Notes under the pieces: generated by a model
Seen by the model: only the letters and a program-made list of their open reading frames with translations
Told to the model about the DNA's origin: nothing
Database searches by the model: none
Source: an uncultured bacterium
GTDB lineage: Bacteria; Patescibacteriota; Minisyncoccia; UBA6257; GWB1-50-10
DNA: 64,000 nt
Assembly (NCBI GenBank): GCA_963768835.1
Contig: CAVYJB010000002.1
Location: 208,223 to 272,222 of the forward strand
Direction of reading: 5' to 3'
Program-made: the position numbers and the translations under genes
Part shown: one piece after another, positions 23,912 through 42,632 of the stretch
Position numbering within the stretch: position 1 is the stretch's first letter
Layout of the letters: each line of letters opens with the position of its first letter

Positions 23912-23913
23912 AC

Positions 23914-25407
23914 ATGTCTATGATCGAAAAATTTAGAGCTATTCTGCTTAAGAAACGGGGTGCGCGGCAGACCGTTTTCAAGAATTTCCTCTGGCTCCTG
24001 ACCTCAAACGTGGGGACCCGCATACTCCGAGGAGCCGTCACGCTCTATGCGGCCCGGGTCCTCGGAGACGCCGGATACGGGGTTTTCGCGTACGCGTTTG
24101 GACTCGCCGGCCTCTTCGTGTTTGTAAAAGACATTGGGGTGGATGTGGTGTTGACGAGGGAGGTCGCGAAGAACCCTGAGGCGCGGCCGGCGTACCTTGC
24201 GACGTCATTCTGGATTGAGCTCGGGCTTCTCGCTATTACCCTTCCACTCCTTCTCTTCGTCGCGCCCCTTTTCAGCAAGAGCCCGGAAGCTACCACACTC
24301 ATCCCTCTCGTTGCGCTTAGCTTCATTTTGGACGATCTCCGAGACCTCTTCGTCGGGTTCTTCCGCGGCACAGAGCGGATGGAATTCGAGGCGTTTGTGG
24401 TTGTGGGCGGTAATCTCCTTCTTACCATCCTCGGTTTTGCCGCGCTCCTCCTCCGGCCCACCCCCCATACCCTTGTCCTCGCTTACGTGGGGTCCTCCGT
24501 TGCGGGGCTCCTTCTCGCTTGCGCGTTCCTCCGGGGTTCTTTCTGGGATCTTTTTACGCGTTTTCGGAAGGAGCTTATAAAACCTATCTTTGTGGCGGTC
24601 TGGCCGCTGGCCCTCTCGTCTCTTGCGGGCGTCCTCTTTCTCTTTGACGTCGACACGGTGATGCTCGGATGGTGGAAGAGCACTGCGGATATTGGGCTCT
24701 ACGGAGCCGCTCAGCGCTTCGTCGGCGTCGTGAGCGCGCTCTCGGTGCTCGTTGGCACAAGCGCATTCCCCGCTCTCTCGCGGTTCGTGCACCAAGGGGA
24801 TCGTGCGAAGGCGCGGGAGTTAATTGAACGTATCCTCGCGGTTCTCTACCTCATTTCGTTGCCGATTATTGTAGGAGGCGTACTTCTTCGGGGACCTCTC
24901 ATGGGGTTCGTGTTCGGTGCGAGCTACGCGCAGGGCGGTCTCGCCTTCGCAGTCCTTCTCCTCACAATGCTTGGGGGCAACGCTCTGGGGTTCTATTCGG
25001 GCATCATTTTCGCCCATAACCAGCAGAAGCGGACCGTCATATTCACGATTATCGCCGGCTTCCTGAATGTCGGGTTTAACTTCCTTCTCATCCCGGTCTA
25101 CGGTGCGGCGGGCTGCGCCGCTGCCACAGTCATCGCGGACACCGTCTACACAGGTGCCCTCTGGTGGCTCTCGAAGCGGTCCATTTCATTCACCGTGCTC
25201 CCGCACCTCGTGAAGATTGCCATCGCCTCCGCCCTGATGGGGGTTCTTGTCGCCATCCTTGCGGCTTTAGGCGTGCATGTTCTTATCTCCGTCGTGGCCG
25301 GAGCCGCGGTCTACTTCCTTCTCCTCCATCTCCTTAAGGAGCCGGTCCTGAAGGAAGTCCTAGGCCTCGCAGGGTTCCTTCGCAAGTCGGAATCCACACC
25401 AGCATGA
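23914..25407 (+). CDS. Wzx-type oligosaccharide flippase (Polysacc_synt / MATE-like family)
   Basis: Roughly 12-14 predicted TM helices. The N-terminus 'RQTVFKNFLWLLTSNVGTRILRGAVTLYAARVLGDAGYGVF' is typical of the PST family. Paralogue of 38980..40479. Confidence 0.65.
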   Translation: MSMIEKFRAILLKKRGARQTVFKNFLWLLTSNVGTRILRGAVTLYAARVLGDAGYGVFAYAFGLAGLFVFVKDIGVDVVLTREVAKNPEARPAYLATSFWIELGLLAITLPLLLFVAPLFSKSPEATTLIPLVALSFILDDLRDLFVGFFRGTERMEFEAFVVVGGNLLLTILGFAALLLRPTPHTLVLAYVGSSVAGLLLACAFLRGSFWDLFTRFRKELIKPIFVAVWPLALSSLAGVLFLFDVDTVMLGWWKSTADIGLYGAAQRFVGVVSALSVLVGTSAFPALSRFVHQGDRAKARELIERILAVLYLISLPIIVGGVLLRGPLMGFVFGASYAQGGLAFAVLLLTMLGGNALGFYSGIIFAHNQQKRTVIFTIIAGFLNVGFNFLLIPVYGAAGCAAATVIADTVYTGALWWLSKRSISFTVLPHLVKIAIASALMGVLVAILAALGVHVLISVVAGAAVYFLLLHLLKEPVLKEVLGLAGFLRKSESTPA

Positions 25408-26582
25408 AGGTTCTCCATGTCGTTCTGAGCTACCTGCCCGCCTACGCGCACGGCGGCCCCATCCTCTCGGTCCACTCCCTAAATAAGTCGCTTGTGAAGG
25501 AAGGGGCGGATGTGACAGTTTTCACGACGAACATCAATGGCCGAGGGCGCATCGACGTGCCGCTCGGGCAGGAGGTCACGGTGGATGGCGTGAAGGTCTG
25601 GTACTTCCCAGTTTCTTTCCCCGAGGCATGGGTCTATTCCAGAGATCTCCATCGAGCTCTCCGGGAACGGACCAAAGAGTTCGACCTTGTGCACATCACC
25701 TCTGTTTTCCTCGCCGCCTCAACCCTAGGTGCCCACTACGCAAAGAAGTTTGGGAAACCCTATATCATTTCTCCGCGTGGAAGCCTGATGCGGGAAACTT
25801 TAGGGAGGAAGAATATGTTGGTAAAGAAGGCCTACGTCGCCCTCGTTGAGAAGCAGAATCTTCGTGGTGCAGCCGCGATCCACTTCACGGCTCCAGCGGA
25901 AGAGGAAGAGTACCGGGCCGCGGGATTACCGCTCCGTCGTTCGTTCGTCATACCCAACGGCATTGATCCGGAGGGGTTCGACGAATCTCTCGGTGGGGAC
26001 ACGTTCCGAAAGCGGTGGGACATCCAACCGGATCAACGAGCCGTGCTCTCCATGGGCCGCATCAATTGGAAAAAGGGTTTCGACACGTTGATTCCCGCTT
26101 TTGCTATCGTGGCCAAAGAAGATCCACGTGCCGTGCTCGTTATCGACGGGACCGACGACGAGGGATACCGAGCGGTCGTAGAGCGGATGATCGCAGAGTA
26201 CCACCTGGAGACACGCGTGCGTTTCACTGGCGCTTTCCAAGGGCTCGACGTTCCTGCGCTCAAGGCCAGCGCGTGCTTCGTGCTCCCGTCCTATTCAGAA
26301 AACTTCGGTATGGCCGTCGTACAGGCAATGTATCTCAAGCTTCCAGTTGTGGTGACTCCGGGTGTCGCGCTTGCGAAGTCGGTGCAACAAGCGGGCGCCG
26401 GCAGAGTTGTAGAAAAAACCCCAGACGCGGTTGCGGGTGCTATTCTAGAAATACTCCGAAGCTCCGCGGAAGCACGCGCGATGGGGGCACGGGGCCGAAC
26501 GCTCGTAGAGAAAGAGTACCTAGCGGAGCAGGTCGCGAGAGCGTTCAAGGCGCAGTATAGTATTGTCATCCATGCCTGCTAG
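25404..26582 (+). CDS. Glycosyltransferase family 1 (GT4)
   Basis: N-terminal 'MKVLHVVLSYLPAYAHGGP' and C-terminal 'VLPSYSENFGMAVVQAMYLKLPVVVT'. Confidence 0.6.
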   Translation: MKVLHVVLSYLPAYAHGGPILSVHSLNKSLVKEGADVTVFTTNINGRGRIDVPLGQEVTVDGVKVWYFPVSFPEAWVYSRDLHRALRERTKEFDLVHITSVFLAASTLGAHYAKKFGKPYIISPRGSLMRETLGRKNMLVKKAYVALVEKQNLRGAAAIHFTAPAEEEEYRAAGLPLRRSFVIPNGIDPEGFDESLGGDTFRKRWDIQPDQRAVLSMGRINWKKGFDTLIPAFAIVAKEDPRAVLVIDGTDDEGYRAVVERMIAEYHLETRVRFTGAFQGLDVPALKASACFVLPSYSENFGMAVVQAMYLKLPVVVTPGVALAKSVQQAGAGRVVEKTPDAVAGAILEILRSSAEARAMGARGRTLVEKEYLAEQVARAFKAQYSIVIHAC

Positions 26583-27189
26583 CTTCTATGAACGTTATTG
26601 GGGGGAACGCGAAGGGGAGCACCTCACGGATTTCCTCGAGAAATGGCCGAAACTCCGTCCGCACATTCCACTTGCGGACGGTATCACCATTGTTGATTTT
26701 GGTTGCGGCGCCGGCGCGGTGCTTCAGGAGATTCGGAAACTGAACCCCCACGCTCGCCTCATTGGTCTCGATGTGTCGGAGCGCGCGTTGAAGAGGGCGA
26801 AAAACGCCTTACCCGGCGGGCAATTTCATCACATTGAGGATGGCGGCGCATTTCCCCTTCCAGACCGTTCCGTGGACTTTCTCTTTTCTTCTGAAGTCAT
26901 CGAGCACGTGTACGACACTGAGAATGCGTTTGCGGAGATGGCGCGCGTGGTGAAGAATGGAGGCAAGGTACTTCTCACAACGCCGTATCACGGGTTCGTG
27001 AAGAACCTCGCAATCGTCTTCTTCGGTTTCGACCGGCACTTCAGCCCCACGGGGCCCCATGTCAGGTTCTTTTCGAGAAAGAGCCTTATAGCCCTTTTCC
27101 AGAAGAACGGGTTCCAGGTACTCAAAGAGGGATACTACGGGCGCTTCTACCCGCTCTCGCACTCCATCTACATCCTTGCGGAAAAATAA
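26563..27189 (+). CDS. Class I SAM-dependent methyltransferase
   Basis: 'IVDFGCGAGAVLQEI' and 'GGKVLLTTPY'. Confidence 0.55.
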   Translation: MSSMPASFYERYWGEREGEHLTDFLEKWPKLRPHIPLADGITIVDFGCGAGAVLQEIRKLNPHARLIGLDVSERALKRAKNALPGGQFHHIEDGGAFPLPDRSVDFLFSSEVIEHVYDTENAFAEMARVVKNGGKVLLTTPYHGFVKNLAIVFFGFDRHFSPTGPHVRFFSRKSLIALFQKNGFQVLKEGYYGRFYPLSHSIYILAEK

Positions 27190-28054
27190 TCCTATGAAAC
27201 TTCCTGTCACCGTCATCATTTTGACGAATAACGAAGAAAAGAACCTGCCGCACGCGCTCCGGAGCGTCGTGGGCTTTGCTCACGAGATTGTGGTAGTAGA
27301 CTCCGGGAGCACCGACCGCACGGTGGAGATTGCCCGCACGAGCGGCGCACGCGTCATTGTGCACGTGCCATACGAGAACCAAGCCCGGCAGTTCAACTGG
27401 GCTTTGGACAACGCTGATATCAAAAGCGAGTGGATCTTTCGGCTGGATGCCGACGAGTGGCTCATGCTGGAGCTCGTGGCGGAACTGGAGAAGGAGCTCC
27501 CCCGTGCGGCGAAAGAGACCGGCGGCTTTCTCATGAAGCGGCGGGTGTATTTTATGGGGCGCTGGATCAGACATGGGGGTTACTACCCGACCTGGATCCT
27601 GCGTCTCTTCCGGAACGGGCAGGCGCGCTACGAAGACCGCGCGATGGATGAACATCTTGTGGTTTCGAAGGGGCGCGTAGAACGCCTGGAGAACGATTTT
27701 GTGGATGAGAACCGTAAAGGGCTCGCTAATTGGATTGCAAAACACAACGACTTCTCAACGCGAGAAGCATTGGAGCGGCTTCGGGAGCGTACGGAGATGC
27801 AGGGAAAAATGGCGGGATCTCTCGAAGGTGCACAAGCGGAACAGAAGCGCTGGGTCAAGAACAATCTCTATCTTAAGTTCCCGCTCTTCCTGCGCGCGTT
27901 TGGTTATTTTCTCTATCGCTACATAATCCGCCTCGGATTCTTAGACGGGCGCGAGGGTCTCATTTTCCACTTTCTCCAGGGTTGCTGGCACCAGTTCCTT
28001 ATCGACGCGAAGGAATTCGAACTGAAGAGAGCGGGGAGCCATGGCGGACACTAA
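27176..28054 (+). CDS. Glycosyltransferase family 2
   Basis: 'VTVIILTNNEEKNLPHALRSV...VVVDSGSTDRT' and 'RLDADEW' (DxD). Confidence 0.6.
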   Translation: MRKNNPMKLPVTVIILTNNEEKNLPHALRSVVGFAHEIVVVDSGSTDRTVEIARTSGARVIVHVPYENQARQFNWALDNADIKSEWIFRLDADEWLMLELVAELEKELPRAAKETGGFLMKRRVYFMGRWIRHGGYYPTWILRLFRNGQARYEDRAMDEHLVVSKGRVERLENDFVDENRKGLANWIAKHNDFSTREALERLRERTEMQGKMAGSLEGAQAEQKRWVKNNLYLKFPLFLRAFGYFLYRYIIRLGFLDGREGLIFHFLQGCWHQFLIDAKEFELKRAGSHGGH

Positions 28055-28823
28055 GACGGGCCTGAAAGAGCGCATCCGCGCGTATTGGGACGCCTCGCCC
28101 TGCGGAACGCTCGGAGACGTGCCGCAAGACCCGGACCGTGCCTATTTCGAGGGTGTGCGGGAGCGACGGTATCGTCTGGAGCCTTGGAGTGACCGAGGTA
28201 TATCGGGGGAGACGATCCGGGGTAAACGAGTGCTTGAGATCGGGTGCGGGTTGGGCACGGACGGGGGTGAGCTTGTACGTCGAGGCGCCACCTACACCGC
28301 CATTGACGCATCAGGGGAATCCTTGGAGCTTGCGCGACGCTTTTTCTCGCTCGAGGGGTTTGCGGGCACTTTCGTGCAGGCCGATGCCGAGCGCTTGCCT
28401 TTCCCTGATGCCAGCTTCGAGTTCGTATATTCGTGGGGCGTCTTGCATCACACGCCCGATATCCGGAAGGCCATCGCGGAAGTGCAACGGGTCCTTGTGC
28501 CAAACGGCAGTTTCTGCATCATGCTCTATAACCGGTGCTCACTCGTCGGCTTCCAGCTCTGGGCCCTCCATGGTCTCCTGCGTGGGAAACCATTCGTTTC
28601 CTGGCGAACGCTTTTTGCTGAACACCACGAAAGCCCTGGTACGCAGGCATTCACTAGACATGAGATGCGAGAACTTTTCCATGATTTTTCATCCGCGAAG
28701 CTTTGCACGGTTGTGACGCCCTATGACGCGCGCGTTGCCCATCGGCGATTTCTTCCGAAACCGCTGCGCGTGCTCATCCCCCGCTCGCTCGGATTCTTCC
28801 ATGTCATGAGCGGAACGAAGTAA
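28041..28823 (+). CDS. Class I SAM-dependent methyltransferase (paralogue of 8704..9630)
   Basis: 'VLEIGCGLGTDGGEL...YTAIDAS' and 'DASFEFVYSWGVLHH'. Confidence 0.6.
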   Translation: MADTKTGLKERIRAYWDASPCGTLGDVPQDPDRAYFEGVRERRYRLEPWSDRGISGETIRGKRVLEIGCGLGTDGGELVRRGATYTAIDASGESLELARRFFSLEGFAGTFVQADAERLPFPDASFEFVYSWGVLHHTPDIRKAIAEVQRVLVPNGSFCIMLYNRCSLVGFQLWALHGLLRGKPFVSWRTLFAEHHESPGTQAFTRHEMRELFHDFSSAKLCTVVTPYDARVAHRRFLPKPLRVLIPRSLGFFHVMSGTK

Positions 28824-28849
28824 GAAAAATACCGGCTTCTCGCCGGTTG

Positions 28850-30076
28850 TTATTTTCTAACCACCGAAGTGAGAAGTTCGTGGAGTTTCACCGCGATGAC
28901 CCGCCGGTCATAGTGTTTTTCCGCGTATAGTCTCCCGTTTTTCCCCAGCTCTTTCGCTTCCTTCGGGTCTCGGTATACGCGGAGTATGGTTTCCGCGAGT
29001 GCTTTGGGATCCTCCGGATGGATGACGAACCCGCATTCCGCCGCGCGGATGATTGCGGCGCCCTCGCCGTTGATGTTGATGACGACCGGGCGTTCGGCTC
29101 CCATGTAGTCGAACATCTTCGACGGGATAACATCCTTGAAGAGCGGCATGTTCTTGTAGGGGATGATCGCGAGCCCCGCGCGGGCAGCGAAGGCTGGCAT
29201 TTCTTCGCGCGGTCGTCCACCGGTGAAGATAACGTTCGAAAGGCCGTATTTCTTAGTAAGCGTCTCGCACCCCGCCTTCTTTGCGCCCTCTCCCACGATA
29301 AGGAAGACAATATCCCTTTCGTTCTTCAATATATTTGCGGCCTCGATGATTATTTCCGGAGCTTGCGCAAGCCCCAGGAGACCCGTATAAAGCGCGACGA
29401 ACTTCCCCGCGAGGTTATAGCGGGCATCCACGGTTGCGTGGTCCGCATCCGGCGTGAAAAGGTCGAGATCCGCGCCGTTCGTGATAAGCGCAAGCTTGTC
29501 CTCCGGCACGCCCTTCTCGGTGACAAGGCGGCGACCGATGCCTTCCGCGTTTACCGCGACCCGCGCGCTTGCGCGGTAGGCCTTCCGTTCGAACCGCTCC
29601 ATCAAACGAAAGAAAAGGTTTTTTCGGAGCATGCCGACCGCGAACGCGGACTCAGGCCAAATGTCGCGGATATCCGCGACAAGCGGCACGCGTCGGAGTT
29701 TCGCGATGACGTATCCGGCAAAGAGGACGGGTAGGGGTGGGGAGGAGGCAAAAATGACGTCGGGCTTCGGAACGCGCAGTCCCGCAAGCGTGGCCGACTT
29801 GAAGAACGAGCCGTACATCATGATGCGGTCCAGGAAACCTCTCCGTGGGGTGATCCAAACCCATGTACGCACGACCGTGACGCCATTCTCCTGCGTTTTT
29901 GAGAAAAGCCTATTTTTGTATCCGGGGAAAAGAACGCCCTTCGGGTAGTTCGGTGGCTCACAGATGACCGTGACCTCGTCGCCCAGCTCGGTGAGAAGCT
30001 TCGAAAAGGACCCGTGTCGGTGTGCCGGCGCGTTCGTTTCGGGGGGGAAGAATTGAGTGAGGAGGAGAACTTTCAT
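28850..30076 (-). CDS. Glycosyltransferase family 1 (GT4)
   Basis: 'MKVLLLTQFFPPETNAPAHR' is the canonical GT4 N-terminus. Start placed at that Met (30076) rather than at the 15-codon longer track start. Divergent from 30115 (+). Confidence 0.6.
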   Translation of the reverse strand: MKVLLLTQFFPPETNAPAHRHGSFSKLLTELGDEVTVICEPPNYPKGVLFPGYKNRLFSKTQENGVTVVRTWVWITPRRGFLDRIMMYGSFFKSATLAGLRVPKPDVIFASSPPLPVLFAGYVIAKLRRVPLVADIRDIWPESAFAVGMLRKNLFFRLMERFERKAYRASARVAVNAEGIGRRLVTEKGVPEDKLALITNGADLDLFTPDADHATVDARYNLAGKFVALYTGLLGLAQAPEIIIEAANILKNERDIVFLIVGEGAKKAGCETLTKKYGLSNVIFTGGRPREEMPAFAARAGLAIIPYKNMPLFKDVIPSKMFDYMGAERPVVININGEGAAIIRAAECGFVIHPEDPKALAETILRVYRDPKEAKELGKNGRLYAEKHYDRRVIAVKLHELLTSVVRK

Positions 30077-30114
30077 TTTTGCGCTTTCCCTTCTTTTAGT
30101 TATAATGCAGCTGC

Positions 30115-31359
30115 ATGTCAATCCGTAGGATTTCCGTCATCGGTCTCGGATATATGGGGCTTCCCATGGCTGCGCTTCTCGCGCAGGCAGGCTTTTCCGT
30201 TACGGGCGTGGATATTGATGCCAAGAGGGTACAGATGCTTCGGGAGGGAAAGGTGCCGTTTGACGAGCCGGGTTTCCCTGAACTTTTCAAACAAAGCTTC
30301 TCCCGGCTCGTATTTTCGAGGAAACCCGTTCCTTCGGACGCGTTCATTATAGCAGTGCCAACGCCCATCACGAAGCGGCGCACCATCGATCTCACTTTCG
30401 TCACGGCAGCGGTCCATTCCCTCGCACCCGTTCTCCGAAACGGGAACCTCGTGGTTATCGAATCCACTGTCGGTCCCGGTTCCTGCGCCGCAGCCGTAAA
30501 ACCCATCCTCGATCGGACCGGCAAACGCTATCTTCTTGCTTACTGCCCCGAACGCGCTTTTCCTGGGAAAACGCTCTATGAAATGGTCCACAATGACCGC
30601 ATTGTGGGCGGGATGAGCGCAACGTCCTCCGAAGCGGCCCGCGGTCTCTACAAGAAGTTCGTCAAGGGAAATATCTTTGTCACCGACATCGAAACTGCGG
30701 AGACGGTCAAGGTACTCGAGAATTCCTACCGCGACGTGAATATTGCTTTTGCGAACGAGGTTGCGAGGATGGCGCACACAATTGGCATCGATATCTGGGA
30801 GGTGATTCGGCTCGCGAACCGGCATCCACGCGTGGACATTATGCAGCCAGGTCCTGGCGTTGGCGGGCACTGCATCCCCATCGACCCGTGGTTCCTGGTG
30901 GAGAAAGGGAAGAAGGACGCAAAACTCATTCGTCGTTCTCTTCTTGTGAACGAAGGGATGCCGCACTTCGTGGTGGATCTTATGGAGCGGGCAGCGCGGA
31001 AGTATAAGTTAAAACCAAAGAATATTGCGATCCTGGGCGTCGCCTACAAAAAGAACGTGGATGATACCCGTGAAACTCCCGCGGAGCGAATCATCGAGAG
31101 ACTCCATGAGCTGCGGTACTCTGTCCGGTGTGCCGACCCTCTCGTGAAGCATTTCTATGAGCCGCTCTTTGGAGCGAAGGAGGCGCTTGCCTGGGCCGAC
31201 GCGGCCATTCTGGTCACTGACCACGACGCATTCCGGAAACTTTCCTTTACGCACCCAAAACTGAAGCTTGTGGTAGATACCCGCAACGCGCTAACTGAGG
31301 GGCAGCGGAAGCAACTCCGTCGCAAGAAAGTCGTCACGTTGGGGAAGGGTGTACAATAA
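30115..31359 (+). CDS. Nucleotide-sugar dehydrogenase, UDP-ManNAc / UDP-GlcNAc 6-dehydrogenase family (WecC/WbpA-like)
   Basis: 'ISVIGLGYMGLPMAALLAQAGFSVTGVDIDAKRV' Rossmann motif, and 'GGHCIPIDP' containing the catalytic Cys. Confidence 0.75.
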   Translation: MSIRRISVIGLGYMGLPMAALLAQAGFSVTGVDIDAKRVQMLREGKVPFDEPGFPELFKQSFSRLVFSRKPVPSDAFIIAVPTPITKRRTIDLTFVTAAVHSLAPVLRNGNLVVIESTVGPGSCAAAVKPILDRTGKRYLLAYCPERAFPGKTLYEMVHNDRIVGGMSATSSEAARGLYKKFVKGNIFVTDIETAETVKVLENSYRDVNIAFANEVARMAHTIGIDIWEVIRLANRHPRVDIMQPGPGVGGHCIPIDPWFLVEKGKKDAKLIRRSLLVNEGMPHFVVDLMERAARKYKLKPKNIAILGVAYKKNVDDTRETPAERIIERLHELRYSVRCADPLVKHFYEPLFGAKEALAWADAAILVTDHDAFRKLSFTHPKLKLVVDTRNALTEGQRKQLRRKKVVTLGKGVQ

Positions 31360-31365
31360 GTTGGT

Positions 31366-34492: not shown

Positions 34493-34503
34493 CCCCCGCT
34501 CAT

Positions 34504-35055
34504 ATGCCGAAGAAGAATATTGAAATAGAGTATCGCGCGCGTTTTGACGAGAAGAAACACATTGAGCTTCAAAAATTCTTGAGCGCAAAAGCGCAGGATT
34601 TAGGGCAGGACGACAAGGATGTCTATTTCTTTCTATTTCCGGACAAGCTCGTGAAGACGGTGAATAATATATCAAAGAAGACCGCGAAGATCGTTCTAAA
34701 ACTGAATAAGATTGGCAAGGGAAGCATTTTCGAGGAAATTGAGATTCCCATCAATTCAGGAGACTTCGATAAAGCGACAAGGCTTTTTGTCGCGCTTGAG
34801 ACGGGCGAGTATATGCACTCGTTCCAGAAACGGCACAACTATCTCTATAAAGGCGTTGAACTAGCGCTGAAGTGGAGCGAGACGTGGGGCTATCATCTGG
34901 AACTCGAAATTGTCATGGATGATGCCGAGGGGAAAGGAGATGCCGAAAGAAAGATATCCGCAGTTGCAGAAGAGTTAGGGATTAAAACCATGACAGACCA
35001 AGAGCTTTCGGAGTTTACGCAGGCTGCGGAGGCGGAATACAAGAAGCAGAAATGA
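34504..35055 (+). CDS. CYTH-domain protein (triphosphate tunnel metalloenzyme / CyaB-like)
   Basis: N-terminal 'NIEIEYRARF' matches the ExExK/R opening beta-strand signature of CYTH. Basic/acidic residues alternate along predicted beta-strands. The gene is low-GC. Confidence 0.4.
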   Translation: MPKKNIEIEYRARFDEKKHIELQKFLSAKAQDLGQDDKDVYFFLFPDKLVKTVNNISKKTAKIVLKLNKIGKGSIFEEIEIPINSGDFDKATRLFVALETGEYMHSFQKRHNYLYKGVELALKWSETWGYHLELEIVMDDAEGKGDAERKISAVAEELGIKTMTDQELSEFTQAAEAEYKKQK

Positions 35056-36005
35056 ACAAGATTTTGGACTCTACGAACTTTGTCGTTCAGGACTCCCGTT
35101 CTGTGAAAATCAACAGAATAAAGGTCTCTGAATTCTCGAAGATTTTCAAGCAGGAGGAAACTAATGACTTACTGAGCCAGGCCCCATTCGATTTTTCGGG
35201 ATTCAGTGACGATGAAAGGTTTAGATTTACACTCATCTTCCAGTCGATCAATTTCTGTTATTGGGGTGACCCCAAGTGGACAATTGAGCACGATGGGAAA
35301 CTCTACGATGGTGCTTGGGGCATGGTCGTCGCGCTGGGGCAAGGTATCCGAGATGGGTTTCCACTTCTCGACTTTAGGTATTGCTCGAAGATAACCAAAG
35401 ACGACCTTGGAAGAATTTTGCGGGCGAACACCGAGATTCCGCTGTTCGAAGAACGCTGGCGAATCCTCCAAGAGATTGGGTTGGTGATGTTAAGTAAATA
35501 CGAAGAGGGGTTAACCTCGCTTGTCGCTAATTCAAACTCCGATGCCGCAAGACTACTCGATGTGATCGTGCGGGATTTTCCTTCATTTAGAGATAGCTCA
35601 AGCTATCGGGGGCGAGAGGTGTTTTTCCAGAAGAGGGCTCAGCTGCTTATTACGGATCTTTGTCAGATGTTGAAGAGACAGGGTGTTATGCTCAAAAACA
35701 TTGATCAACTTACTGCTTGTGCAGACTACAAGCTCCCGCAGATTATACGACGACTCGGGATACTGGAATATGCCGACCAGCTCGCGAAAACAATCGACAG
35801 TAAGATCGAGCTCCCGCATGGGTCGGATGAGGAGGTCGAGATACGCGCTAACACCATTTGGGCAGTGGAGTATATGAAAGAAGAGATACAGAGACAAAGT
35901 CCAGATGTCACTTCAATGGAGATCGACGGTTATCTGTGGCAAGCCAGCCAGGAAAAGCCGGTTGACGAGAAGCCTTATCATCGAACAAGGACAACGGCAT
36001 ATTAG
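35052..36005 (+). CDS. Queuosine-salvage family (DUF2419/Qng1-like) protein
   Basis: 'FQSINFCYWGDPKWTIEHDGKLYDGAWGMVVAL' resembles the conserved core of the Q_salvage family. Low-GC gene that overlaps the stop of the upstream CYTH gene. Confidence 0.4.
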   Translation: MNKILDSTNFVVQDSRSVKINRIKVSEFSKIFKQEETNDLLSQAPFDFSGFSDDERFRFTLIFQSINFCYWGDPKWTIEHDGKLYDGAWGMVVALGQGIRDGFPLLDFRYCSKITKDDLGRILRANTEIPLFEERWRILQEIGLVMLSKYEEGLTSLVANSNSDAARLLDVIVRDFPSFRDSSSYRGREVFFQKRAQLLITDLCQMLKRQGVMLKNIDQLTACADYKLPQIIRRLGILEYADQLAKTIDSKIELPHGSDEEVEIRANTIWAVEYMKEEIQRQSPDVTSMEIDGYLWQASQEKPVDEKPYHRTRTTAY

Positions 36006-36029
36006 GCCCGTGGTATCCTTCCTCTAGAC

Positions 36030-36542
36030 ATGACCAATCCTTCCACAACCTGTCCCGGCTGTGGAATTGTGCTACCCGCCGGTTCAATACGAGCGAACGG
36101 GCTCGGCAACCGATCTCCTGAATGCCAGGAACTTTTCCACGAGTTGTCTTTCTACACGCTCGCGCATCCCAAGCCCTCCTTCTTTATCCATCAGTACGCC
36201 GTGGATGCCTACGCGGCGCAGCATGCGGGGCCAAAGACAAAGCCCATAACCGTGGCCTTCGCCCTGACGGGTCTCCATCTTTTCATAACGTATGGGTACT
36301 CGGGCCGAGAGGTCCAGAAGGCGCATATGTACATGGCGAAGCAAAGGAAGGAGTGGCCGACGTTCGCCATCCCGAAAACCAAGGGAGCACTCACGGTTCG
36401 GGATGTGATACAAGCTCCGGCCGGTCCGGAACGTGATAAGGCGATAAAGAACTGGGCTCGGTCGGTCTGGGCCGTATGGAGCGGTGAGCACAAGGCCGTT
36501 GCAGACCTCCTCGTGTCGCTGAACCTCCCGCCCGCTCGTTGA
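36030..36542 (+). CDS. Hypothetical Cys-containing protein (possibly DUF5946-like, zinc-ribbon N-terminus)
   Basis: 'CPGCG...SPEC' is a putative Zn-binding N-terminus. High GC, unlike the two upstream genes. No functional motif recognised. Confidence 0.4.
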   Translation: MTNPSTTCPGCGIVLPAGSIRANGLGNRSPECQELFHELSFYTLAHPKPSFFIHQYAVDAYAAQHAGPKTKPITVAFALTGLHLFITYGYSGREVQKAHMYMAKQRKEWPTFAIPKTKGALTVRDVIQAPAGPERDKAIKNWARSVWAVWSGEHKAVADLLVSLNLPPAR

Positions 36543-36670
36543 CTCCCTATCGGCTAATACGTGCGAATAAGAAAATAAGGGAATCGCTTCGTGATGCAAC
36601 GTTCTTGAAATCAGGATTTCCAGCCTCTACCATTTAGGTAGAGACCTTTCATATTCGGAGGGAAACAGAT

Positions 36671-37255
36671 ATGGGACTCTTATTACTTCTGCTTCTCGTG
36701 GTGCTCTACGCGCGATACTTGTTTGAAGACCTCCCGGAGCATAGAAGAATTCTGAGGTTGCAGGAGGCCGGGCTCAGGGCTACCAATGAGGACTGCGACG
36801 CGAGTGATGCAATGGACAACTGGCGTCTTGCGAATCCCACCATAGGGTTCGGCGACTCTGCGTATGCCCAAGAACTGGTATGGAGACGTATTGCCGCTTG
36901 GCGACGATTCATGGAGACCCACCCGCACGTGCAAGACCGCGGCTTCACCGCTTTTCTCTATTCTCTCCTCGACCAGCGCGGGTCACCGCCACCCGCCCAT
37001 CACTTACCGCTTTCTAAACGGCCTCCTACGGAGGCCGTTCTTTTTATACCTAGCCGAACCACTCGTCGTACCAGAGCGAAAGCGTTACGAGATTCCAGAT
37101 GCGGAAGTTATGCTCCACACCCCGTTCTTGGTGCGCATGGACAAGCGTGTTCACATAGTCGTAGTCGAGGATACCGCGCTCGCGGAGCTTGGAGTTCAGG
37201 ATGGCGTCCACGAAGAGTGGCGCCATTTTTGATTCTGGCTTCAGCCACTCACTAA
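36671..37255 (+). CDS. Hypothetical protein with a hydrophobic N-terminus; the 3' end is doubtful
   Basis: GGAGGG lies 7 nt upstream of the ATG, and the N-terminus 'MGLLLLLLLVVLYARYLF' looks like a signal/TM segment. The first ~110 aa look protein-like. The distal part is R/S/P-rich and overlaps the asnB-like 3' end on the other strand, so a frameshift or artefactual extension is possible. Confidence 0.25.
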   Translation: MGLLLLLLLVVLYARYLFEDLPEHRRILRLQEAGLRATNEDCDASDAMDNWRLANPTIGFGDSAYAQELVWRRIAAWRRFMETHPHVQDRGFTAFLYSLLDQRGSPPPAHHLPLSKRPPTEAVLFIPSRTTRRTRAKALRDSRCGSYAPHPVLGAHGQACSHSRSRGYRARGAWSSGWRPRRVAPFLILASATH

Positions 37256-38969
37256 GGGATGTCCCGAAGCCCTGTTTTTTACGCCAGATGATCTCGTGAG
37301 GGATGATGTCCTCGACGGCTTTTTTGAGGATGTACTTTGGCTCGTTATCCTTGAGTTTGATGTCCGCGGGGATTTGGAAGGCGAGCTCCACGAGACGGGT
37401 ATCAAGGAACGGCACCCGGCCCTCGAGGGAGTGCGCCATTGTCATCCGGTCCGCGCGCGCGAGGAGGAGCTCTGGCAGACGCTGTTTCACTTCAAGATAA
37501 GTGAGTTGCTTCAGGAAATCGGCTTTGTTGTCGATGCCCTCAAGCTCTTTATAGAAGCGTTCAATGTAGGGATAGCTCGAGGCATGGCGGATCCGCTCTT
37601 GGTAGCTTGGTGTGAGGAGCTTCTGTTTCTGGAAGTCCGAGAAGGCAATCGCGTTTCCCCAGTAGGGTTCCTGGTGATCCTTGAGGCGCCGGAAATACTC
37701 CTTATAGAAGTCGAACTTCGGGTGCGCGAGGAGCTTCGCAGCGCTCCAGGCGCCGTGCCGCGCGAAACCTGGGGTTTTCTCAAGCCAGTGCCACCAGCTC
37801 TCGTAGAGCCGGACAGCTTTAACGTAGGTGTCATACCCTGTGAAAAGCTCGTCCGAGCCTTCGCCGATCTGGATGACGATGACGCCTGCGTCGCGCGTGA
37901 GTTTGGAGAGCCAGTAGAGCGGGAAGCAGACCTGGTCGCCGTTCGGATCGTCGAAGTAGTGGGAGAACTTCGGGAGGAATTCGCGCATGTGCGCTTCGGT
38001 CGTCAGGATTTCGTGGGGTTTCGTGCCGATGCGCTCCGCGATGAGGCGGGAGTACTGGAACTCGTTGTACTTCGCGAACTCCTTCGAACCCACCGAGAAG
38101 GTTTCGACGGGCTTGCCGAGCGCCTCGCTCATCAAGGTTGCGTTCGTCGAGGAGTCGATGCCGCCTGAGAGGAAGCAGCCGAAGGGCACGTCTGAGACCA
38201 TCTGGAGTTTAATGGAATCACGCAGAAGCCGGCGAATTTCCGAGACGTAGAATTCCTCGCCCCGGCCCTCGGCGCCTTTGGCACGCGCGGGGTTCCAGTA
38301 CTCTCGCTCGGAGATAGCTCCGCCTGCGTCGATAGAGAGGAGATGCGCCGGGGGGAGCTTGCGCACATTTCGGAAGAGCGTGAGCGGCGAAGGGAGCGAG
38401 GAGAAGGTGAGGTAGTGAGAAACATTCGGTTCGTCGAGCTCCTTCTTGAAATCAGGATGGGCGAGGATTGCTTTGATTTCCGAGCCGAAATAGAAGGTCC
38501 CGTCCACGATCGCATAGTAGAACGGCTTGATGCCCATGTGGTCGCGCGCCGCAAGGAGGACTTTCTTCCGCTCATCCCAGATGACGAATGCGAACATGCC
38601 ATTCAGGCGCCCCACGAACTCCGGGCCGTACTCCTCGTACATATTGAGGATGACTTCAGTGTCCGAGCGTGACTTGAATGCGTGCCCCTTCTCCTCCAGC
38701 TCGCGCCGGAGCTCCATAAAGTTGTAGATCTCACCGTTGAAGGTGATCCAGGTGCCGCCACAGGCAGTCGTCATCGGCATATGGCCGGCCGGTGAGAGAT
38801 CAATGATCTTCAGCCTTCGGGTACCGAGCCCCACCTTCTTGTCTTGGGAGAAATAAGCCCCCGCGTCGTCGGGCCCGCGGTGCACCAAGGTATCGCGCAT
38901 GCGGACGAGATCGTCCTCACGGACAGTTTTCGAGTTCTTAAAATGGTAGAGACCAGCGATGCCGCACAT
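37050..38969 (-). CDS. asnB: Asparagine synthase (glutamine-hydrolysing) family amidotransferase
   Basis: 'MCGIAGLYHFK' gives the N-terminal Cys2 of the class II glutamine amidotransferase domain. 'GCFLSGGIDSS' is the PP-loop (SGGxDS). Confidence 0.8.
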   Translation of the reverse strand: MCGIAGLYHFKNSKTVREDDLVRMRDTLVHRGPDDAGAYFSQDKKVGLGTRRLKIIDLSPAGHMPMTTACGGTWITFNGEIYNFMELRRELEEKGHAFKSRSDTEVILNMYEEYGPEFVGRLNGMFAFVIWDERKKVLLAARDHMGIKPFYYAIVDGTFYFGSEIKAILAHPDFKKELDEPNVSHYLTFSSLPSPLTLFRNVRKLPPAHLLSIDAGGAISEREYWNPARAKGAEGRGEEFYVSEIRRLLRDSIKLQMVSDVPFGCFLSGGIDSSTNATLMSEALGKPVETFSVGSKEFAKYNEFQYSRLIAERIGTKPHEILTTEAHMREFLPKFSHYFDDPNGDQVCFPLYWLSKLTRDAGVIVIQIGEGSDELFTGYDTYVKAVRLYESWWHWLEKTPGFARHGAWSAAKLLAHPKFDFYKEYFRRLKDHQEPYWGNAIAFSDFQKQKLLTPSYQERIRHASSYPYIERFYKELEGIDNKADFLKQLTYLEVKQRLPELLLARADRMTMAHSLEGRVPFLDTRLVELAFQIPADIKLKDNEPKYILKKAVEDIIPHEIIWRKKQGFGTSLSEWLKPESKMAPLFVDAILNSKLRERGILDYDYVNTLVHAHQERGVEHNFRIWNLVTLSLWYDEWFG

Positions 38970-38979
38970 AGGTTAAGGG

Positions 38980-40479
38980 TTAGGGCAAGGGGTGCTCCGC
39001 GAGTCCTTCGCGACCCCGGAGAGCTTGGAGAATGGTACGGAGCTCGTGCACTAGAGGTTCCCGGAGGAGAAAGAGCGCCCCAACATAGACCGCGACGGAG
39101 GTGAAAAGGGTCAGCACCACCGATATCCCTCGGGCGTTCAAGACCCACGCCACGACCGCCATAATCACGGTTGCGATGGCGATGCGCGGAAGGTTTCGGA
39201 GGGTCGGGAAACGTATCATGCGCTGGCGCACGATACGCCACATAAGACCGTTGTTAAAGATGAGCGCGACGATGGTGGCGGCCGAGCAGCCAGCAATCCC
39301 GAAGGGTGGGATGAGGAGGATGTCGAAGAGGATGTTCGCAACACTTCCGAGGATCACAGGCACCGCGAGCCGTAGTTGCTGGTTGTACGCGATGGAGAGG
39401 TTCCCGAGGAGGGTCCCAGGAAAGACGAGGAGGACGGTGACGACGAGGAATCGGAAAGCCGCGGCCGCGGGGGCGTACTCCACTCCGTAGAGCAGCACCA
39501 TGAGCGGCTTTGCAAGAACGACGCCGCCGACTGCCATGGGTACTGCGACGAAGAGCACCGCGCGCATAGCCTGCTCCATCAATTCCTTGATTTTCGCCTC
39601 ACGCGCCTGCCGCACGAACCGGGACATCGCGGGGAAAATAGCGGCGGCGAGGATGGCAGGCAGAATGTAGAGGAGTTGGAGCACCTTCTGCGCGGCGGAG
39701 TAGTACCCGAGCTCCGTAGCGGTGCGCCACCACCCGAGCATCACAAAGTCGGTATTCAGCATGAAGGTGCCGAGAAGGCCAATGACGGCGATGGGGACGG
39801 CGGCTCGGAGAACGGGGCGCACGAGGCTCCGCTCGAACTTAGAGAAAATCTGCGACACCTGCTTGCGGACGATAATGAGTACGACAAGCGTGCCGAGGCC
39901 GGAGCTCGCGACGTAGGCGACGGTGAGAGCTCCGGCGGTGTGGGAAAGGGTTAGGATGACGAAGCCCGCGACCGTGATAGCGAGGTTTGTGAAGGTATTG
40001 ATGAACGCCTCAATCTCCATCTTTTCGAGGGCGCGCAGGTAGGATAGGCAAAAATCCCGCATGCCATCGAAAATAGTAAGAAGTGCCATGAAGGGGATGA
40101 GGACCCGGGCGGCGGGGATGTTCGAGAGCGACGGAGCCACGAAGATCATAATGAGGGCTGTGGCGGTCAGAAGCACCGCCTTGATCCAGAAGGTGGTGGC
40201 GAAGATTTGTAGGCGACGCTCGGGGTTTTGGCTCGCCTCGCGCGTAAGGATGTTGCTCACACCGATGTCGGCAAAGATGGTGAAAAACCCGGCGACCCCC
40301 AGCACGTAGGAGAAAACGCCGTAGTCTGCGGCTCCCAGAAGTCGCGCGGCGTAGATGATGATGGCGGCGCGGATTACACGGCCCGCAATCTGTCCGAACG
40401 AGAGCCAGAACACGTTTTTCACGATGGTCTGGCGCGTTCCGCGATTGTGGAGGAAGAACTCCCGAAGACGTGCAAACAT
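38980..40479 (-). CDS. Wzx-type oligosaccharide flippase (second copy)
   Basis: The polytopic N-terminus 'RQTIVKNVFWLSFGQIAGRVIRAAIIIYAARLLGAADYGVF' is clearly homologous to 23914..25407. Confidence 0.6.
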   Translation of the reverse strand: MFARLREFFLHNRGTRQTIVKNVFWLSFGQIAGRVIRAAIIIYAARLLGAADYGVFSYVLGVAGFFTIFADIGVSNILTREASQNPERRLQIFATTFWIKAVLLTATALIMIFVAPSLSNIPAARVLIPFMALLTIFDGMRDFCLSYLRALEKMEIEAFINTFTNLAITVAGFVILTLSHTAGALTVAYVASSGLGTLVVLIIVRKQVSQIFSKFERSLVRPVLRAAVPIAVIGLLGTFMLNTDFVMLGWWRTATELGYYSAAQKVLQLLYILPAILAAAIFPAMSRFVRQAREAKIKELMEQAMRAVLFVAVPMAVGGVVLAKPLMVLLYGVEYAPAAAAFRFLVVTVLLVFPGTLLGNLSIAYNQQLRLAVPVILGSVANILFDILLIPPFGIAGCSAATIVALIFNNGLMWRIVRQRMIRFPTLRNLPRIAIATVIMAVVAWVLNARGISVVLTLFTSVAVYVGALFLLREPLVHELRTILQALRGREGLAEHPLP

Positions 40480-40484
40480 GGGGT

Positions 40485-41795
40485 TCAGCCGTGCGAGGCG
40501 AAGAGATACCGGACGGTTTTCAGGATGATGAGGAGATCGAGAACGAGGGAACGGTTCTTGATGTAATAGATGTCATACCGCAGTTTCTCATAGGCTTCTT
40601 CAGGGGACGCGCTCGGTTTGTAGTTAATCTGCGCCCATCCCGTGAGGCCCGGTTTCACCATGTGCCGCATCCCGTAGTAGGGGAGCCGCTCGTATTGCCG
40701 CACGAGTTCCACCCGTTCGGCGCGCGGGCCCGTGAGGGAAAGATCGCCGCGGAAGACATTCAAAAGTTGGGGGAACTCATCGAGGTGGGTAAAGCGAAGA
40801 ACTCGACCGACAGGGGTGAGGCGCGGATCATGCGCTTCCGTCCAGAGCGGTCCGTGATTCTCGCGCATTGTGCGGAACTTAAAGAGTGTGAAAGGGATAC
40901 CATTCTTCCCAACCCGTTCCTGTCGAAAGATGACGGGGCCGCGAGAGGAGAGCGCAATAAGGATCGCCGAGAGAAGCATAAAAGGGGAAAATATCACAGT
41001 TGTGAGAGTCGAGATGGCGATATCGACTAAGCGTTTCAGGGCGTCGTAGAAAGGACGTCGGGTAGTGATGTTCTCCAGAAACCACGCCTCCGCGAGTTCG
41101 TCGAGGGGGATCTTCTCAAAAACGAGTTCATAAAAATCCCAAAAATTAAGGATACCAACCTCGAGAGGAAGGAGACGGTATACCGCAGAGAGCACGTCCA
41201 GGTTGCTCGCGAAGTGCGGCTGAACTACGACGAGATGAACTCGCCGATTCTCGATCGCTGTTCGTAGGATGCGAAAATCCTCCGGGTGGGGGTCCGAGAT
41301 ACGAAGCTCAATCCGATACCCCGCAGTCGGATTCTCTTTGAGGAAGTGAGCTGTTTCCTCCGCGAGAGGCGAGGTTCCTAAAAAGGCCACCCCAAGCGCG
41401 CCTGAAGCGAAGAGACGCAGGAAAAGGGAACGAATGAAGAAGTCGAGCCCAAGGAAGAGAACGCTGAAAATGAGGAGATTCGTCTTCGGCGTCAGCCGGA
41501 AAAAATCTCCGAAAAGATAGAGCGCTACTGTCGAAAGTAGGGCCGCGACAACAACGGTTGCCGTGAGAGTCGAAAGAAGCGCCGCACGGTTTGGGGCCCT
41601 CCGGTGCCGGTAGAGGTCCGCGAGGTAAAACACAAAGAGCCACAAGATAAAAAGAGCTGAGAACGGCACAAGGTGGCTCTGCCAGCTTTGGGGGAAGGCC
41701 GAAAAGCCATAACGCACAAGAAGCGCCAGGACAAGGGCGGCGTAGAGGGCGGCGAGGTCGCCGGCTAAGAGAACCAGCTTCTTCCAGGTAGACAT
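40485..41795 (-). CDS. Polyprenyl-phosphate hexose-1-phosphate transferase (WbaP/WcaJ-like initiating phosphoglycosyltransferase, Bac_transf domain)
   Basis: The C-terminal 'RPGLTGWAQINY' / 'DELPQLLNVFRGDLSLTGPRAE' block is characteristic of the Bac_transf family. It is preceded by several TM helices. Confidence 0.75.
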   Translation of the reverse strand: MSTWKKLVLLAGDLAALYAALVLALLVRYGFSAFPQSWQSHLVPFSALFILWLFVFYLADLYRHRRAPNRAALLSTLTATVVVAALLSTVALYLFGDFFRLTPKTNLLIFSVLFLGLDFFIRSLFLRLFASGALGVAFLGTSPLAEETAHFLKENPTAGYRIELRISDPHPEDFRILRTAIENRRVHLVVVQPHFASNLDVLSAVYRLLPLEVGILNFWDFYELVFEKIPLDELAEAWFLENITTRRPFYDALKRLVDIAISTLTTVIFSPFMLLSAILIALSSRGPVIFRQERVGKNGIPFTLFKFRTMRENHGPLWTEAHDPRLTPVGRVLRFTHLDEFPQLLNVFRGDLSLTGPRAERVELVRQYERLPYYGMRHMVKPGLTGWAQINYKPSASPEEAYEKLRYDIYYIKNRSLVLDLLIILKTVRYLFASHG

Positions 41796-41885: not shown

Positions 41886-42632
41886 ATGGAAACCACACCA
41901 ATCACCGAAGAGAAGCGGAAGCGCGACTACTTAATGCCGGGGAGCATCCTGGTTGCAGCCCTCCTTGTCTCCATCTCACTCGTGTACAACGCGGGGGTGA
42001 AAACCGCAACGCCGCAGGCGGCCAACCTTGGGAATGCCGCTGCTCCAAATGCTGCCGCACCGGCGGTAGCAACTGTCGGACAGCCGAAACCAATTGGGCC
42101 GACAGACCACATCATGGGAAATCCCGCAGCGCCCGTGAAGGTGATTGAATACTCGGATCTTGAATGCCCCTTCTGTAAGGAGTTCCAGCCCACAATGCAG
42201 AAGATCGTCTCTGACTATGCGGGCCAAGTCGCATGGGTTTTTAGAGAATTTCCCCTAGCGCAGCTTCATCCGAAGGCTCCGCATGAAGCGGAAGCTGCCG
42301 AGTGCGCAGCAGAGGTCGGCGGGAACGACGGATTCTGGGCTTTTATCAACCGTCTCTATGCGGTGACGCCCTCTAACAACGGGCTCGACCCCGCGCAGTT
42401 GCCACAGATTGCTGCCGATGTGAATCTCGACGCTTCAAAGTTCGCAACTTGCCTTTCGAGCGGCAAGTACGCGTCCGTGGTCGCCGCAAGTGCGGCAGAA
42501 GCCCAGTCCATCGGAGCCCAGGGGACGCCCTTCTCCGTCGTGATCACGAAGAGCGGCAAACTTTCGGTTCTGAATGGTGCGTATCCTTATGCGCAGGTGA
42601 AGGCGGTGATTGACCAAGCTCTCCAGAGCTAG
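41886..42632 (+). CDS. DsbA-family thiol:disulfide oxidoreductase (thioredoxin fold, membrane-anchored)
   Basis: Active site 'CPFCKEF' (CxxC) within a DsbA-like context, after an N-terminal TM segment. Confidence 0.65.
   Translation: METTPITEEKRKRDYLMPGSILVAALLVSISLVYNAGVKTATPQAANLGNAAAPNAAAPAVATVGQPKPIGPTDHIMGNPAAPVKVIEYSDLECPFCKEFQPTMQKIVSDYAGQVAWVFREFPLAQLHPKAPHEAEAAECAAEVGGNDGFWAFINRLYAVTPSNNGLDPAQLPQIAADVNLDASKFATCLSSGKYASVVAASAAEAQSIGAQGTPFSVVITKSGKLSVLNGAYPYAQVKAVIDQALQS

Follow-up and report, generated by a model that had tools for sequence, protein, structure and literature searches.

Genes of the island

We analysed 64,000 nucleotides (the window in what follows) of contig CAVYJB010000002.1 (assembly GCA_963768835.1, positions 208,223 to 272,222), from the genome of an uncultured member of the Paceibacteria (Parcubacteria, candidate phyla radiation [CPR]). 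Every substantial open reading frame (ORF) was scanned against Pfam, hydrophobicity and helix scans were run, and leftover ORFs were checked. The region is the core of a ~38-kb cell-surface glycan island of the Wzx/Wzy_C type (3459-41795), in which a single initiating phosphoglycosyltransferase (PGT) is accompanied by two flippases, here called Wzx1 and Wzx2. The unit formed by the PGT, Wzx2 and an AsnB-like protein marks the end of the island on the housekeeping side, a Wzy_C protein and its tetratricopeptide repeat (TPR) partner mark the far side, and the interior holds 9 glycosyltransferases (GTs), ~10 S-adenosylmethionine (SAM) methyltransferases (MTs) and sugar-nucleotide genes. The components on which the argument turns are the following.

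23914-25407, plus strand: Wzx1, an accessory MOP/PST flippase of a rare Paceibacteria clade (PF01943, clade hidden Markov models [HMMs], neighbour-joining [NJ] tree)
38980-40479, minus strand: Wzx2, a conserved "house" MOP/PST flippase of 499 aa, orthologous to the flippase encoded behind the PGT across Paceibacteria
40485-41795, minus strand: large polytopic PGT of 436 aa (Bac_transf, EPS_sugtrans subfamily)
37050-38969, minus strand: AsnB-like glutamine amidotransferase, encoded behind PGT and Wzx2 as the third member of their unit (Asn_synthase, E 2e-89, and GATase_7)
3459-4853 and 4850-5515, plus strand: Wzy_C membrane protein and its TPR partner, which has one transmembrane (TM) helix (PF04932, TPR_19)

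A first-pass annotation, made from the letters alone, had asked whether two flippases, one Wzy_C protein and one initiator yield two glycans from this locus. Its placing of Wzx2 beside the initiator and the AsnB-like gene was confirmed by Pfam, and its description of Wzx1 as embedded among GT4 and methyltransferase genes was borne out by Pfam and by gene spacing. Wzx1 is separated from the upstream GT4 gene by a gap of 2-8 bp and overlaps the downstream GT4 gene by 4 bp, with methyltransferase genes around; it is translationally coupled to both GT4 neighbours and belongs to a 10-gene plus-strand run (18809-28823). Wzx2 sits 5 bp downstream of the PGT gene, and the AsnB-like gene starts 10 bp after Wzx2.

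Two intact paralogous flippases

Wzx1 and Wzx2 are MOP/PST flippases of the 14-helix type. Both exceed the PF01943 (Polysacc_synt) cutoff of 28.2 bits by a wide margin (Wzx1, 122.5 bits, E 2.8e-35; Wzx2, 120.3 bits, E 1.3e-34), and both give weaker matches to Polysacc_synt_3, MurJ and MatE. The coordinates first proposed for the two genes are correct, with the qualification that Wzx1 may start at ATG 23914 (497 aa) or at the in-frame ATG 23920 (495 aa), since public gene calls use either. Aligned end to end, the two proteins are 40% identical (197/495, E 3e-115), and they are true paralogues rather than near-identical copies. Compared with 28 homologues, both are full length and retain all 23 family-invariant residues, so neither is a pseudogene. 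The two circumstances that the first-pass annotation had named as fatal to its idea, a very recent duplication or a decayed copy, are thus ruled out.

The AlphaFold2 model of Wzx2 has 14 helices (pLDDT 90.6, pTM 0.88), and that of Wzx1 (pLDDT 79.6, pTM 0.78) shows the same helix pattern. In Foldseek searches the Wzx2 model matched MurJ (7wax) over its full length (query TM-score, TMq, 0.77; ~508 columns) and the 12-helix WzxE (9g9n) over ~415 columns (target TM-score, TMt, 0.80), with MATE transporters lower; it thus has the MOP fold, in which two lobes of six helices enclose a central cavity. Among solved structures, the flippase-family profile comes closest in sequence to TacF, the teichoic-acid flippase of pneumococcus (9xzn_B, E 7e-17), and then to MurJ. 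Neither protein reached a curated Wzx equivalog: NCBIfam models Wzx_EPS (NF041871), Oglyco_Wzx (NF058658) and HfsF (NF050818) gave 35-66 bits against cutoffs of 700-800. From their genomic association with the PGT and the GTs, both flippases are predicted to translocate oligosaccharides linked to undecaprenyl diphosphate.

The resemblance to MurJ and TacF raises a different reading, in which one of the two, most plausibly Wzx2 near ftsA/ftsZ, has lipid II or a teichoic-acid-like precursor as its substrate, so that only Wzx1 would be a true flippase of the glycan. This would accord with the 14-helix models, with MurJ as the best structural match and TacF as the nearest solved sequence relative, with the near-universal presence of Wzx2 in the lineage in a housekeeping neighbourhood, and with the finding that O-antigen flippases can replace MurJ (PMC4990322). 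Against it, both proteins score 57 bits with the MurJ equivalog TIGR01695, whose cutoff is 235.55; most genomes carry only Wzx2-type flippases, and carry them in a GT-filled island; and the position of Wzx2 directly behind a Bac_transf PGT, which it adjoins in most related loci, points to a PGT-primed rather than an MraY-primed substrate. We regard this reading as highly unlikely.

Wzx2 and its PGT hold a conserved place in related genomes

Relatives were compared in a set of ~165 loci, comprising 80 genome loci, 80 metagenome loci and several exact-match contigs, onto which the window proteins were mapped by tblastn. The comparison involves four further parts of the window, annotated from Pfam.

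41886-53158: housekeeping flank anchoring the island (dsbA, trxB, three genes that lack a Pfam match, pth, lepB, hisS, HIT, yqeY, ybeY, ftsA, ftsZ)
18809-23911, plus strand: upstream part of the Wzx1 operon (C-methyltransferase, GT2, MT, FkbM-MT, GT4_22742)
25404-30121: conserved GT block (GT4_25404, MT26563, GT2_27176 and MT28041 on the plus strand; GT4_28850 on the minus strand)
30115-34492, plus strand: uronic-acid cassette (UDP-sugar 6-dehydrogenase [UGDH], ADH+GFO bi-domain oxidoreductase, glucuronyl C5-epimerase-like protein)

Homologues of both flippases came almost only from Patescibacteria metagenome-assembled genomes (Jorgensen-, Wolfe-, Brenner- and Liptonbacteria, and Paceibacterota). 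At E<1e-30 Wzx2 has over 227 homologues, of which the closest reach 55-63% identity; Wzx1 has few, and its closest reach 43-47%. The gene order around Wzx2 is conserved and runs ftsZ-ftsA-yqeY-hisS-lepB-pth-(the three genes without Pfam match)-trxB-dsbA, then PGT, Wzx2 and, in some loci, AsnB, and then a variable island. The same flank stands beside the PGT-Wzx2 pair in L005-L012, L022, L027, L032, L038, L043, L050, L053, L072, L089 and others. In 62 of 84 loci (80 of the 84 from the genome scan) a PGT lay no more than 10 kb from the flippase, PGT and Wzx2 are adjacent in most of the ~165 loci, and most metagenome loci of the Wzx2 clade include the PGT. In ~25 related loci an AsnB orthologue (53-67% identity) follows Wzx2.

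Three GTs recur in the variable island, namely GT4_28850, GT2_27176 and GT4_25404. Each has orthologues (25-63% identity) in ~20 loci of the genome set and in numerous metagenome loci, and these invariably lie between the flippase positions. Orthologous uronic-acid cassettes occur in L013, L081, L093, L111-114 and L124. The TPR-Wzy_C pair forms the far boundary of the island in many genomes and was seen at island ends in L033, L035, L036, L040-42, L047, L048, L054 and L072; all of these except L035 are compact islands consisting of dsbA (reverse), Wzx (forward), TPR (reverse) and WzyC (reverse). The window is this compact design stretched to ~38 kb, with Wzy_C-TPR at 3459-5515 and the PGT at 41795.

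Wzx1 belongs to a rare clade with a fixed position of its own

The first-pass annotation had recommended a phylogeny of the two flippases. The NJ tree and the clade HMMs agree on two old lineages, each with its own orthologues: when homologues were scored with both models, 22 ORFs (~18 distinct loci) fitted the Wzx1 model better by at least 99 bits and none fell between 0 and +50 bits. Judged by these sequence comparisons, Wzx1 is a separate, rare, monophyletic accessory clade represented in ~18 other loci.

Members of this clade occupy the site where the conserved GT block meets variable genes. A GT4_25404 orthologue follows Wzx1 on the same strand in 15 of the 16 loci with enough sequence, often succeeded by MT26563 and GT2_27176; the exception is L108, where the GT4 gene precedes the flippase. 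None of the ~18 loci has a PGT adjoining Wzx1. The convergent layout of the window, with Wzx1 on one strand and Wzx2-PGT facing it, is repeated on at least five other contigs. PGT-Wzx2 lies 9-14 kb downstream of Wzx1, in convergent orientation, in the window, JACRPK010000005 (L056 and L014), ERZ1292623.44 (L094 and L109), ERZ1292623.1187 (L160 and L101) and L099; at a further Wzx1-clade locus, L092, the contig ends at the AsnB gene. Because the two-flippase layout recurs in related genomes, we take it to be a real design in which both flippases are kept by selection. Identities between the window and the two-flippase contigs are 42-44% for Wzx1, 45-49% for Wzx2, 44-48% for the PGT and 49-52% for GT4_25404; Wzx1 is about as diverged as its neighbours, which fits co-inheritance under purifying selection.

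We also considered whether Wzx1 is a compositionally foreign insertion and ruled this out, since it agrees with the genome in GC content (0.586) and in GC at third codon positions (GC3, 0.70). Low GC is confined to patches formed by other genes (FkbM15033, GT2_16057, MT17894, CMT18809, GT2_20216, FkbM22005, CYTH and Q_salvage), and the upstream part of the Wzx1 operon includes three genes at GC 0.46-0.49.

Other Paceibacteria have independent arrangements of two flippases around a single PGT. The order Wzx>PGT>Wzx is found in L017 and L034 (some with a following AsnB), and the tandem order PGT>Wzx>Wzx in L029, L105 and L122. Gain of a flippase thus appears to be recurrent in the Paceibacteria island.

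One initiator and one Wzy_C protein

The catalytic domain of the PGT lies at its C-terminus (PF02397, Bac_transf, E 2.3e-61, residues 254-432), behind an N-terminal multi-TM region; five TM segments are predicted. The protein scores above the NCBIfam subfamily cutoff of TIGR03025 (EPS_sugtrans; 337 vs. 295.55 bits) and below the curated cutoffs of the subfamily model for WbaP, an undecaprenyl-phosphate galactose-1-phosphate transferase (TIGR03022; 184.8 vs. 403), and of the equivalog model for WcaJ (TIGR03023; 272.6 vs. 410.75). The label "WbaP-like" given to it at first therefore fits the architecture (Bac_transf, TIGR03025) only, and the WbaP and WcaJ models assign no sugar to the enzyme.

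The 64-kb window contains a single initiator, as the first-pass annotation had it. Pfam found no second Bac_transf and no WecA/MraY-type protein in the window; the helix scan found no GT2 with a TM helix, which excludes candidates of the GtrB/WpsA type there; and no small multi-TM ORF resembling GtrA, nor any candidate among the leftover ORFs, was found in the island. A hidden second initiator within the window is ruled out by these three scans.

The Wzy_C protein (PF04932, E 2.5e-20, 73.2 bits vs. a cutoff of 31.7, residues 228-383) has ten TM segments and is the only polymerase or ligase candidate in the window; its family takes in WaaL ligases, PglL O-oligosaccharyltransferases and some Wzy proteins. 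The claim of a single Wzy_C protein thus stands, except that the gene (3459-4853) marks the distal end of the island and lies outside the range 23914-41795 in which it had been counted. The protein had no NCBIfam match and no solved relative by sequence. No Wzz or other polysaccharide co-polymerase (PCP), no outer-membrane polysaccharide export protein (OPX) and no LytR-CpsA-Psr (LCP) protein was found in any window ORF at Pfam E<=1e-3, and the window scans yielded no ABC exporter and no GT-C enzyme. The missing Wzz/PCP leans towards a ligase role for the Wzy_C protein and proves nothing.

Probable separate transcription units and the question of independent glycans

Gene spacing and two hairpins are suggestive of separate convergent units, one carrying Wzx1 (18809-28823, plus strand) and the other PGT-Wzx2-AsnB (41795-37050, minus strand). 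Gaps within the upstream part of the Wzx1 operon measure 4-93 bp. The first hairpin (28831-28847), between MT28041 and GT4_28850, is GC-rich with T-rich tails on both strands and is a possible bidirectional terminator; the second (37017-37039) has a GC-rich 10-bp stem in the convergent gap between DUF5946 and AsnB. These two were the only noteworthy intergenic hairpins, and overall promoter and terminator counts were not above shuffled expectation, so that the evidence for transcription units is only suggestive.

Separate units of this kind would be expected if the island made two fully independent glycans, one through Wzx1 and the nearby GTs and MTs, the other through PGT-Wzx2-AsnB and the uronic-acid genes, with a second initiator perhaps elsewhere in the genome. 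Wzx proteins are usually specific for their unit (PMC6436433), and in the related genome CAYHGT a second flippase stands beside WzyC-TPR-GT9-MT-GT4 (L035) on a contig other than that of PGT-Wzx2 (L037). We nevertheless find this explanation distinctly unlikely. No second PGT occurs near any of the ~18 Wzx1-clade loci, the window has a single Wzy_C protein, and the conserved GT block, situated between the two flippases, also occurs in loci that show one flippase.

Neighbouring genes in relatives also contradict the particular split offered as an example in the first-pass annotation, in which Wzx1 would serve a neutral, methylated glycan and Wzx2 an amidated, acidic one, and they speak in the same way against two independent pathways. 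In L013, L111-L114 and L124 the uronic-acid cassette, methyltransferases and GTs are interleaved behind PGT-Wzx2 with one visible flippase (~10 kb flank), and in L087 an AsnB-like gene and a bi-domain oxidoreductase come immediately after a Wzx1-clade flippase.

A proposed branched pathway with two flippase substrates

From the families, synteny, clades and recurrence observed above we infer a substrate assignment for the flippases. Our preferred explanation, held tentatively and with somewhat less than even confidence, is that one island with one primer makes two lipid-linked units, that Wzx2 is the ancestral flippase and Wzx1 a specialised accessory one, and that one Wzy_C-TPR pair acts as polymerase or ligase. 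The single PGT would prime undecaprenyl phosphate with a hexose-1-phosphate, and cytoplasmic GT4 and GT2 enzymes with methyltransferases would assemble the lipid-linked oligosaccharide. On this common primer two structurally different forms may arise, a core unit and a unit extended or decorated through the variable genes, of which one form would be flipped by Wzx2 and the other by Wzx1. Outside the membrane, the lone Wzy_C protein and its TPR partner would polymerise the units or ligate them to an acceptor. The island would then hold one branched pathway with two flippase substrates rather than two independent polysaccharide systems. Two lines of published work count towards two substrates: Wzx proteins prefer cognate units (PMC6436433; PMC11706664), and a MOP flippase, TacF, can gate on the decoration state of its substrate (PMC13385700).

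Several observations weigh against this explanation. In L007 (Brennerbacteria) and in L089, no flippase separates the orthologues of GT4_22742 (58-62%) and GT4_25404 (50-56%), which abut; in L085/86, L092, L096 and L100 a flippase, of the Wzx1 clade in all except L096, comes directly after the GT4_22742 orthologue. With a flippase present or missing at this point, Wzx1 is a presence/absence polymorphism in an otherwise conserved operon. L127, L147, L159 and L169 likewise have genes for the GDP-mannose 4,6-dehydratase, the C-methyltransferase and GT4_22742 with no Wzx1 beside the conserved GT block. The same enzymes, to judge from all these loci other than those with the inserted flippase, apparently work with one flippase. 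Such single-flippase calls hold within the ~10 kb of flank retrieved per relative. Fourteen loci showed no flippase within 1.6-6.7 kb beyond GT4_25404, and since the spacing in L109/L094 reaches 5 kb, the firm single-flippase relatives are only L007, L089, L008 and L127.

Sequence evidence for divergent specificity is likewise thin, because the clades show fixed differences at only three positions (N/D71, E100/K100 and L241/M240) and share 40 invariant ones; a strong signature of functional divergence can be set aside, three positions being weak evidence either way. A published counterpart that bears on this question is the unipolar polysaccharide (UPP) system of Agrobacterium tumefaciens, in which two Wzx and two Wzy proteins and one polyisoprenylphosphate hexose-1-phosphate transferase (PHPT) make two polysaccharides and each flippase mutant affects both (bioRxiv 10.1101/2021.04.22.440995). 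The authors had expected one flippase per product, which "did not hold true", and the polymerases define the products (bioRxiv 10.1101/2021.04.22.440995). With non-specific UPP flippases as precedent and one Wzy_C in the window, the argument from two flippases to two products is weak in general.

These points lend themselves to the view that the flippases are redundant or cooperative, both moving the same unit or units of a single glycan, one as the primary flippase and the other adding capacity or robustness. The need for each UPP flippase in both polysaccharides (bioRxiv 10.1101/2021.04.22.440995), the presence of one PGT and one Wzy_C only in the window, the few clade-specific differences and the close relatives that show one flippase with the same GTs all suit it. 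We consider it rather unlikely on three counts. The Wzx1 clade is old, monophyletic and fixed in position, and has been maintained beside Wzx2 to ~42-47% identity in several genomes; pure redundancy rarely lasts so long in genomes of <1 Mb; and the charge at residue 100 is reversed and completely fixed in each clade, with Glu in 26/26 Wzx1-clade and Lys in 51/51 Wzx2-clade sequences. This residue stands where the third long helix begins, within FWIE in Wzx1 and FWIK in Wzx2 (codons ~24211-24213, counted from ATG 23914, and ~40180-40182).

As regards the original question, the supposition is supported in part: the window has two old paralogues in apparently separate convergent units with one shared PGT; the number of flippases does not prove the number of products, and that the island yields two products is unproven. 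The branched pathway remains our preferred explanation on that footing.

Other genes of the island and its flanks

The rest of the island, annotated from Pfam, is the distal variable part.

5622-18670, mixed strands: B12-radical SAM enzyme, GT9, MTs, GDP-mannose 4,6-dehydratase and GT4; further, a short-chain epimerase/reductase, GT1_2, FkbM MTs and GT2

Methylation genes are unusually dense between 5622 and 28823, with ~10 SAM methyltransferases, four or five of them of the FkbM type. A sugar C-methyltransferase (18809-20122) and the B12-binding radical SAM enzyme (5622-7397) stand beside the 9 GTs. This density suggests a heavily O- and C-methylated glycan. The GT9 (heptosyltransferase-family) protein of this CPR glycan island is encoded at 7413-8711 and has an orthologue (39%) in the WzyC-TPR-MT-GT4 module of L035; the related island L085 has genes of a GDP-heptose-like pathway (GHMP kinase, SIS, HAD and NTP transferase).

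Between the uronic-acid cassette and the AsnB-like gene, at 34504-36542, lie genes for a CYTH protein, a queuosine-salvage protein (Q_salvage) and DUF5946. The first two are low in GC (0.45-0.47), and within the set of ~165 related loci only L001, the window genome's own Logan contig, was seen to have the trio.

Three starts assigned mechanically are probably too long: that of FkbM9455 (9455-10573), which overlaps MT8704 by 176 bp; that of the C5-epimerase-like ORF (33440-34492), which overlaps the oxidoreductase by 95 bp and is called publicly at 324 aa rather than 350; and the TTG start of GT4_28850 (28850-30121), which overlaps the UGDH start.

The right half of the window is housekeeping and also carries genes for ribonucleotide reductase. 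The three adjacent genes without a Pfam match (44119-46630; 143, 171 and 504 aa, with about one TM helix each) keep this position, with trxB on one side and pth on the other, in 10 or more related genomes, at 34-63% identity. In the gap between dsbA and trxB, a 55-aa ORF (42706-42873) has two hydrophobic helices, and a relative has a 54-aa gene of the SPW family (PF03779) at the same position. The region is flanked by genes for three very large proteins predicted to lie at the surface: one of 1110 aa with a PG_binding_1 domain (4-3336), one of 1746 aa with Big_7 and BACON repeats (55936-61176), and one with a GH18 chitinase-like domain and Big_7 repeats that runs past the window end (61334-64000).

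Comparison with known systems and significance

All island components belong to known families. The canonical Wzx/Wzy loci for O-antigen, enterobacterial common antigen (ECA), colanic acid and Gram-positive capsular or exopolysaccharides likewise gather a PGT, GT2 and GT4 enzymes, a MOP flippase, a Wzy_C protein and sugar-nucleotide genes in one island. The window differs from them in having two flippases for one PGT and one Wzy_C protein, in the absence of Wzz/PCP, OPX and an LCP ligase from the window by Pfam, and in its host, a monoderm-like CPR bacterium; its flippases have 14 helices, like MurJ and TacF, whereas WzxE has 12.

A single initiator that serves two flippases and two products sharing their first sugar has a likeness in WecA of E. 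coli K-12, with WzxE and WzxB/RfbX. The two E. coli flippases are very divergent and belong to two distinct loci, each of which has a Wzy and a GT set of its own, whereas both flippases of the window lie in one island, are 40% identical and have a single Wzy_C protein in common. WecA is credited with initiating both ECA and O-antigen where PMC11706664 cites its reference 7. The UPP system resembles the window in its one WbaP-type PHPT (UppE), its two Wzx homologues (UppX and UppV) and its overlapping pathways (bioRxiv 10.1101/2021.04.22.440995); it differs in having two product-defining Wzy proteins and genes spread over six clusters, where the window has one Wzy_C protein and contiguous genes.

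For the rhamnose-rich cell wall polysaccharide (CWPS) of lactococci, PMC10821137 describes a single large locus with a conserved and a variable part, like that of the window, and a rhamnan and a polysaccharide pellicle (PSP) that are exported separately and joined outside. The window differs from this system in that it has neither an ABC transporter nor a GT-C enzyme. In lactococci a flippase serves the PSP alone, whereas the rhamnan leaves through an ABC transporter; the two have separate initiators, and a GT-C enzyme acts as ligase. TacF, the closest solved relative by sequence, is also a MOP flippase that selects on decoration state (PMC13385700), yet its similarity is remote and the window has no choline or teichoic-acid genes.

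What is new is the CPR setting and a contiguous layout that recurs and includes a dedicated clade of accessory flippases. CPR bacteria, or Patescibacteria, are mostly uncultured episymbionts whose attachment to hosts probably depends on surface glycans. Our search of a paper library for CPR flippases, MurJ and this synteny returned nothing relevant, and almost nothing on the synthesis of CPR surface glycans. A broader proposal, which we offer doubtfully, is that Paceibacteria share a lineage-wide envelope-glycan system, with PGT and flippase by dsbA-trxB-pth-lepB-hisS-ftsAZ, a hypervariable island and a Wzy_C-TPR end; in the subset with Wzx1, one initiator would feed two lipid-linked glycans, a core and an extended or methylated one, joined or displayed by one Wzy_C-type enzyme.

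Its components being standard throughout, the finding is of value as context and comes as no surprise. It provides three markers for comparing Paceibacteria glycan islands, the PGT-flippase anchor, the conserved GT core and the recurrent accessory flippase clade, and it makes the island a tractable test case for flippase specificity versus glycan diversification. If the proposal is true, the split from one primer to two flippases would be, in contiguous form, undescribed for any organism, and the island would give CPR bacteria their first defined surface-glycan architecture.

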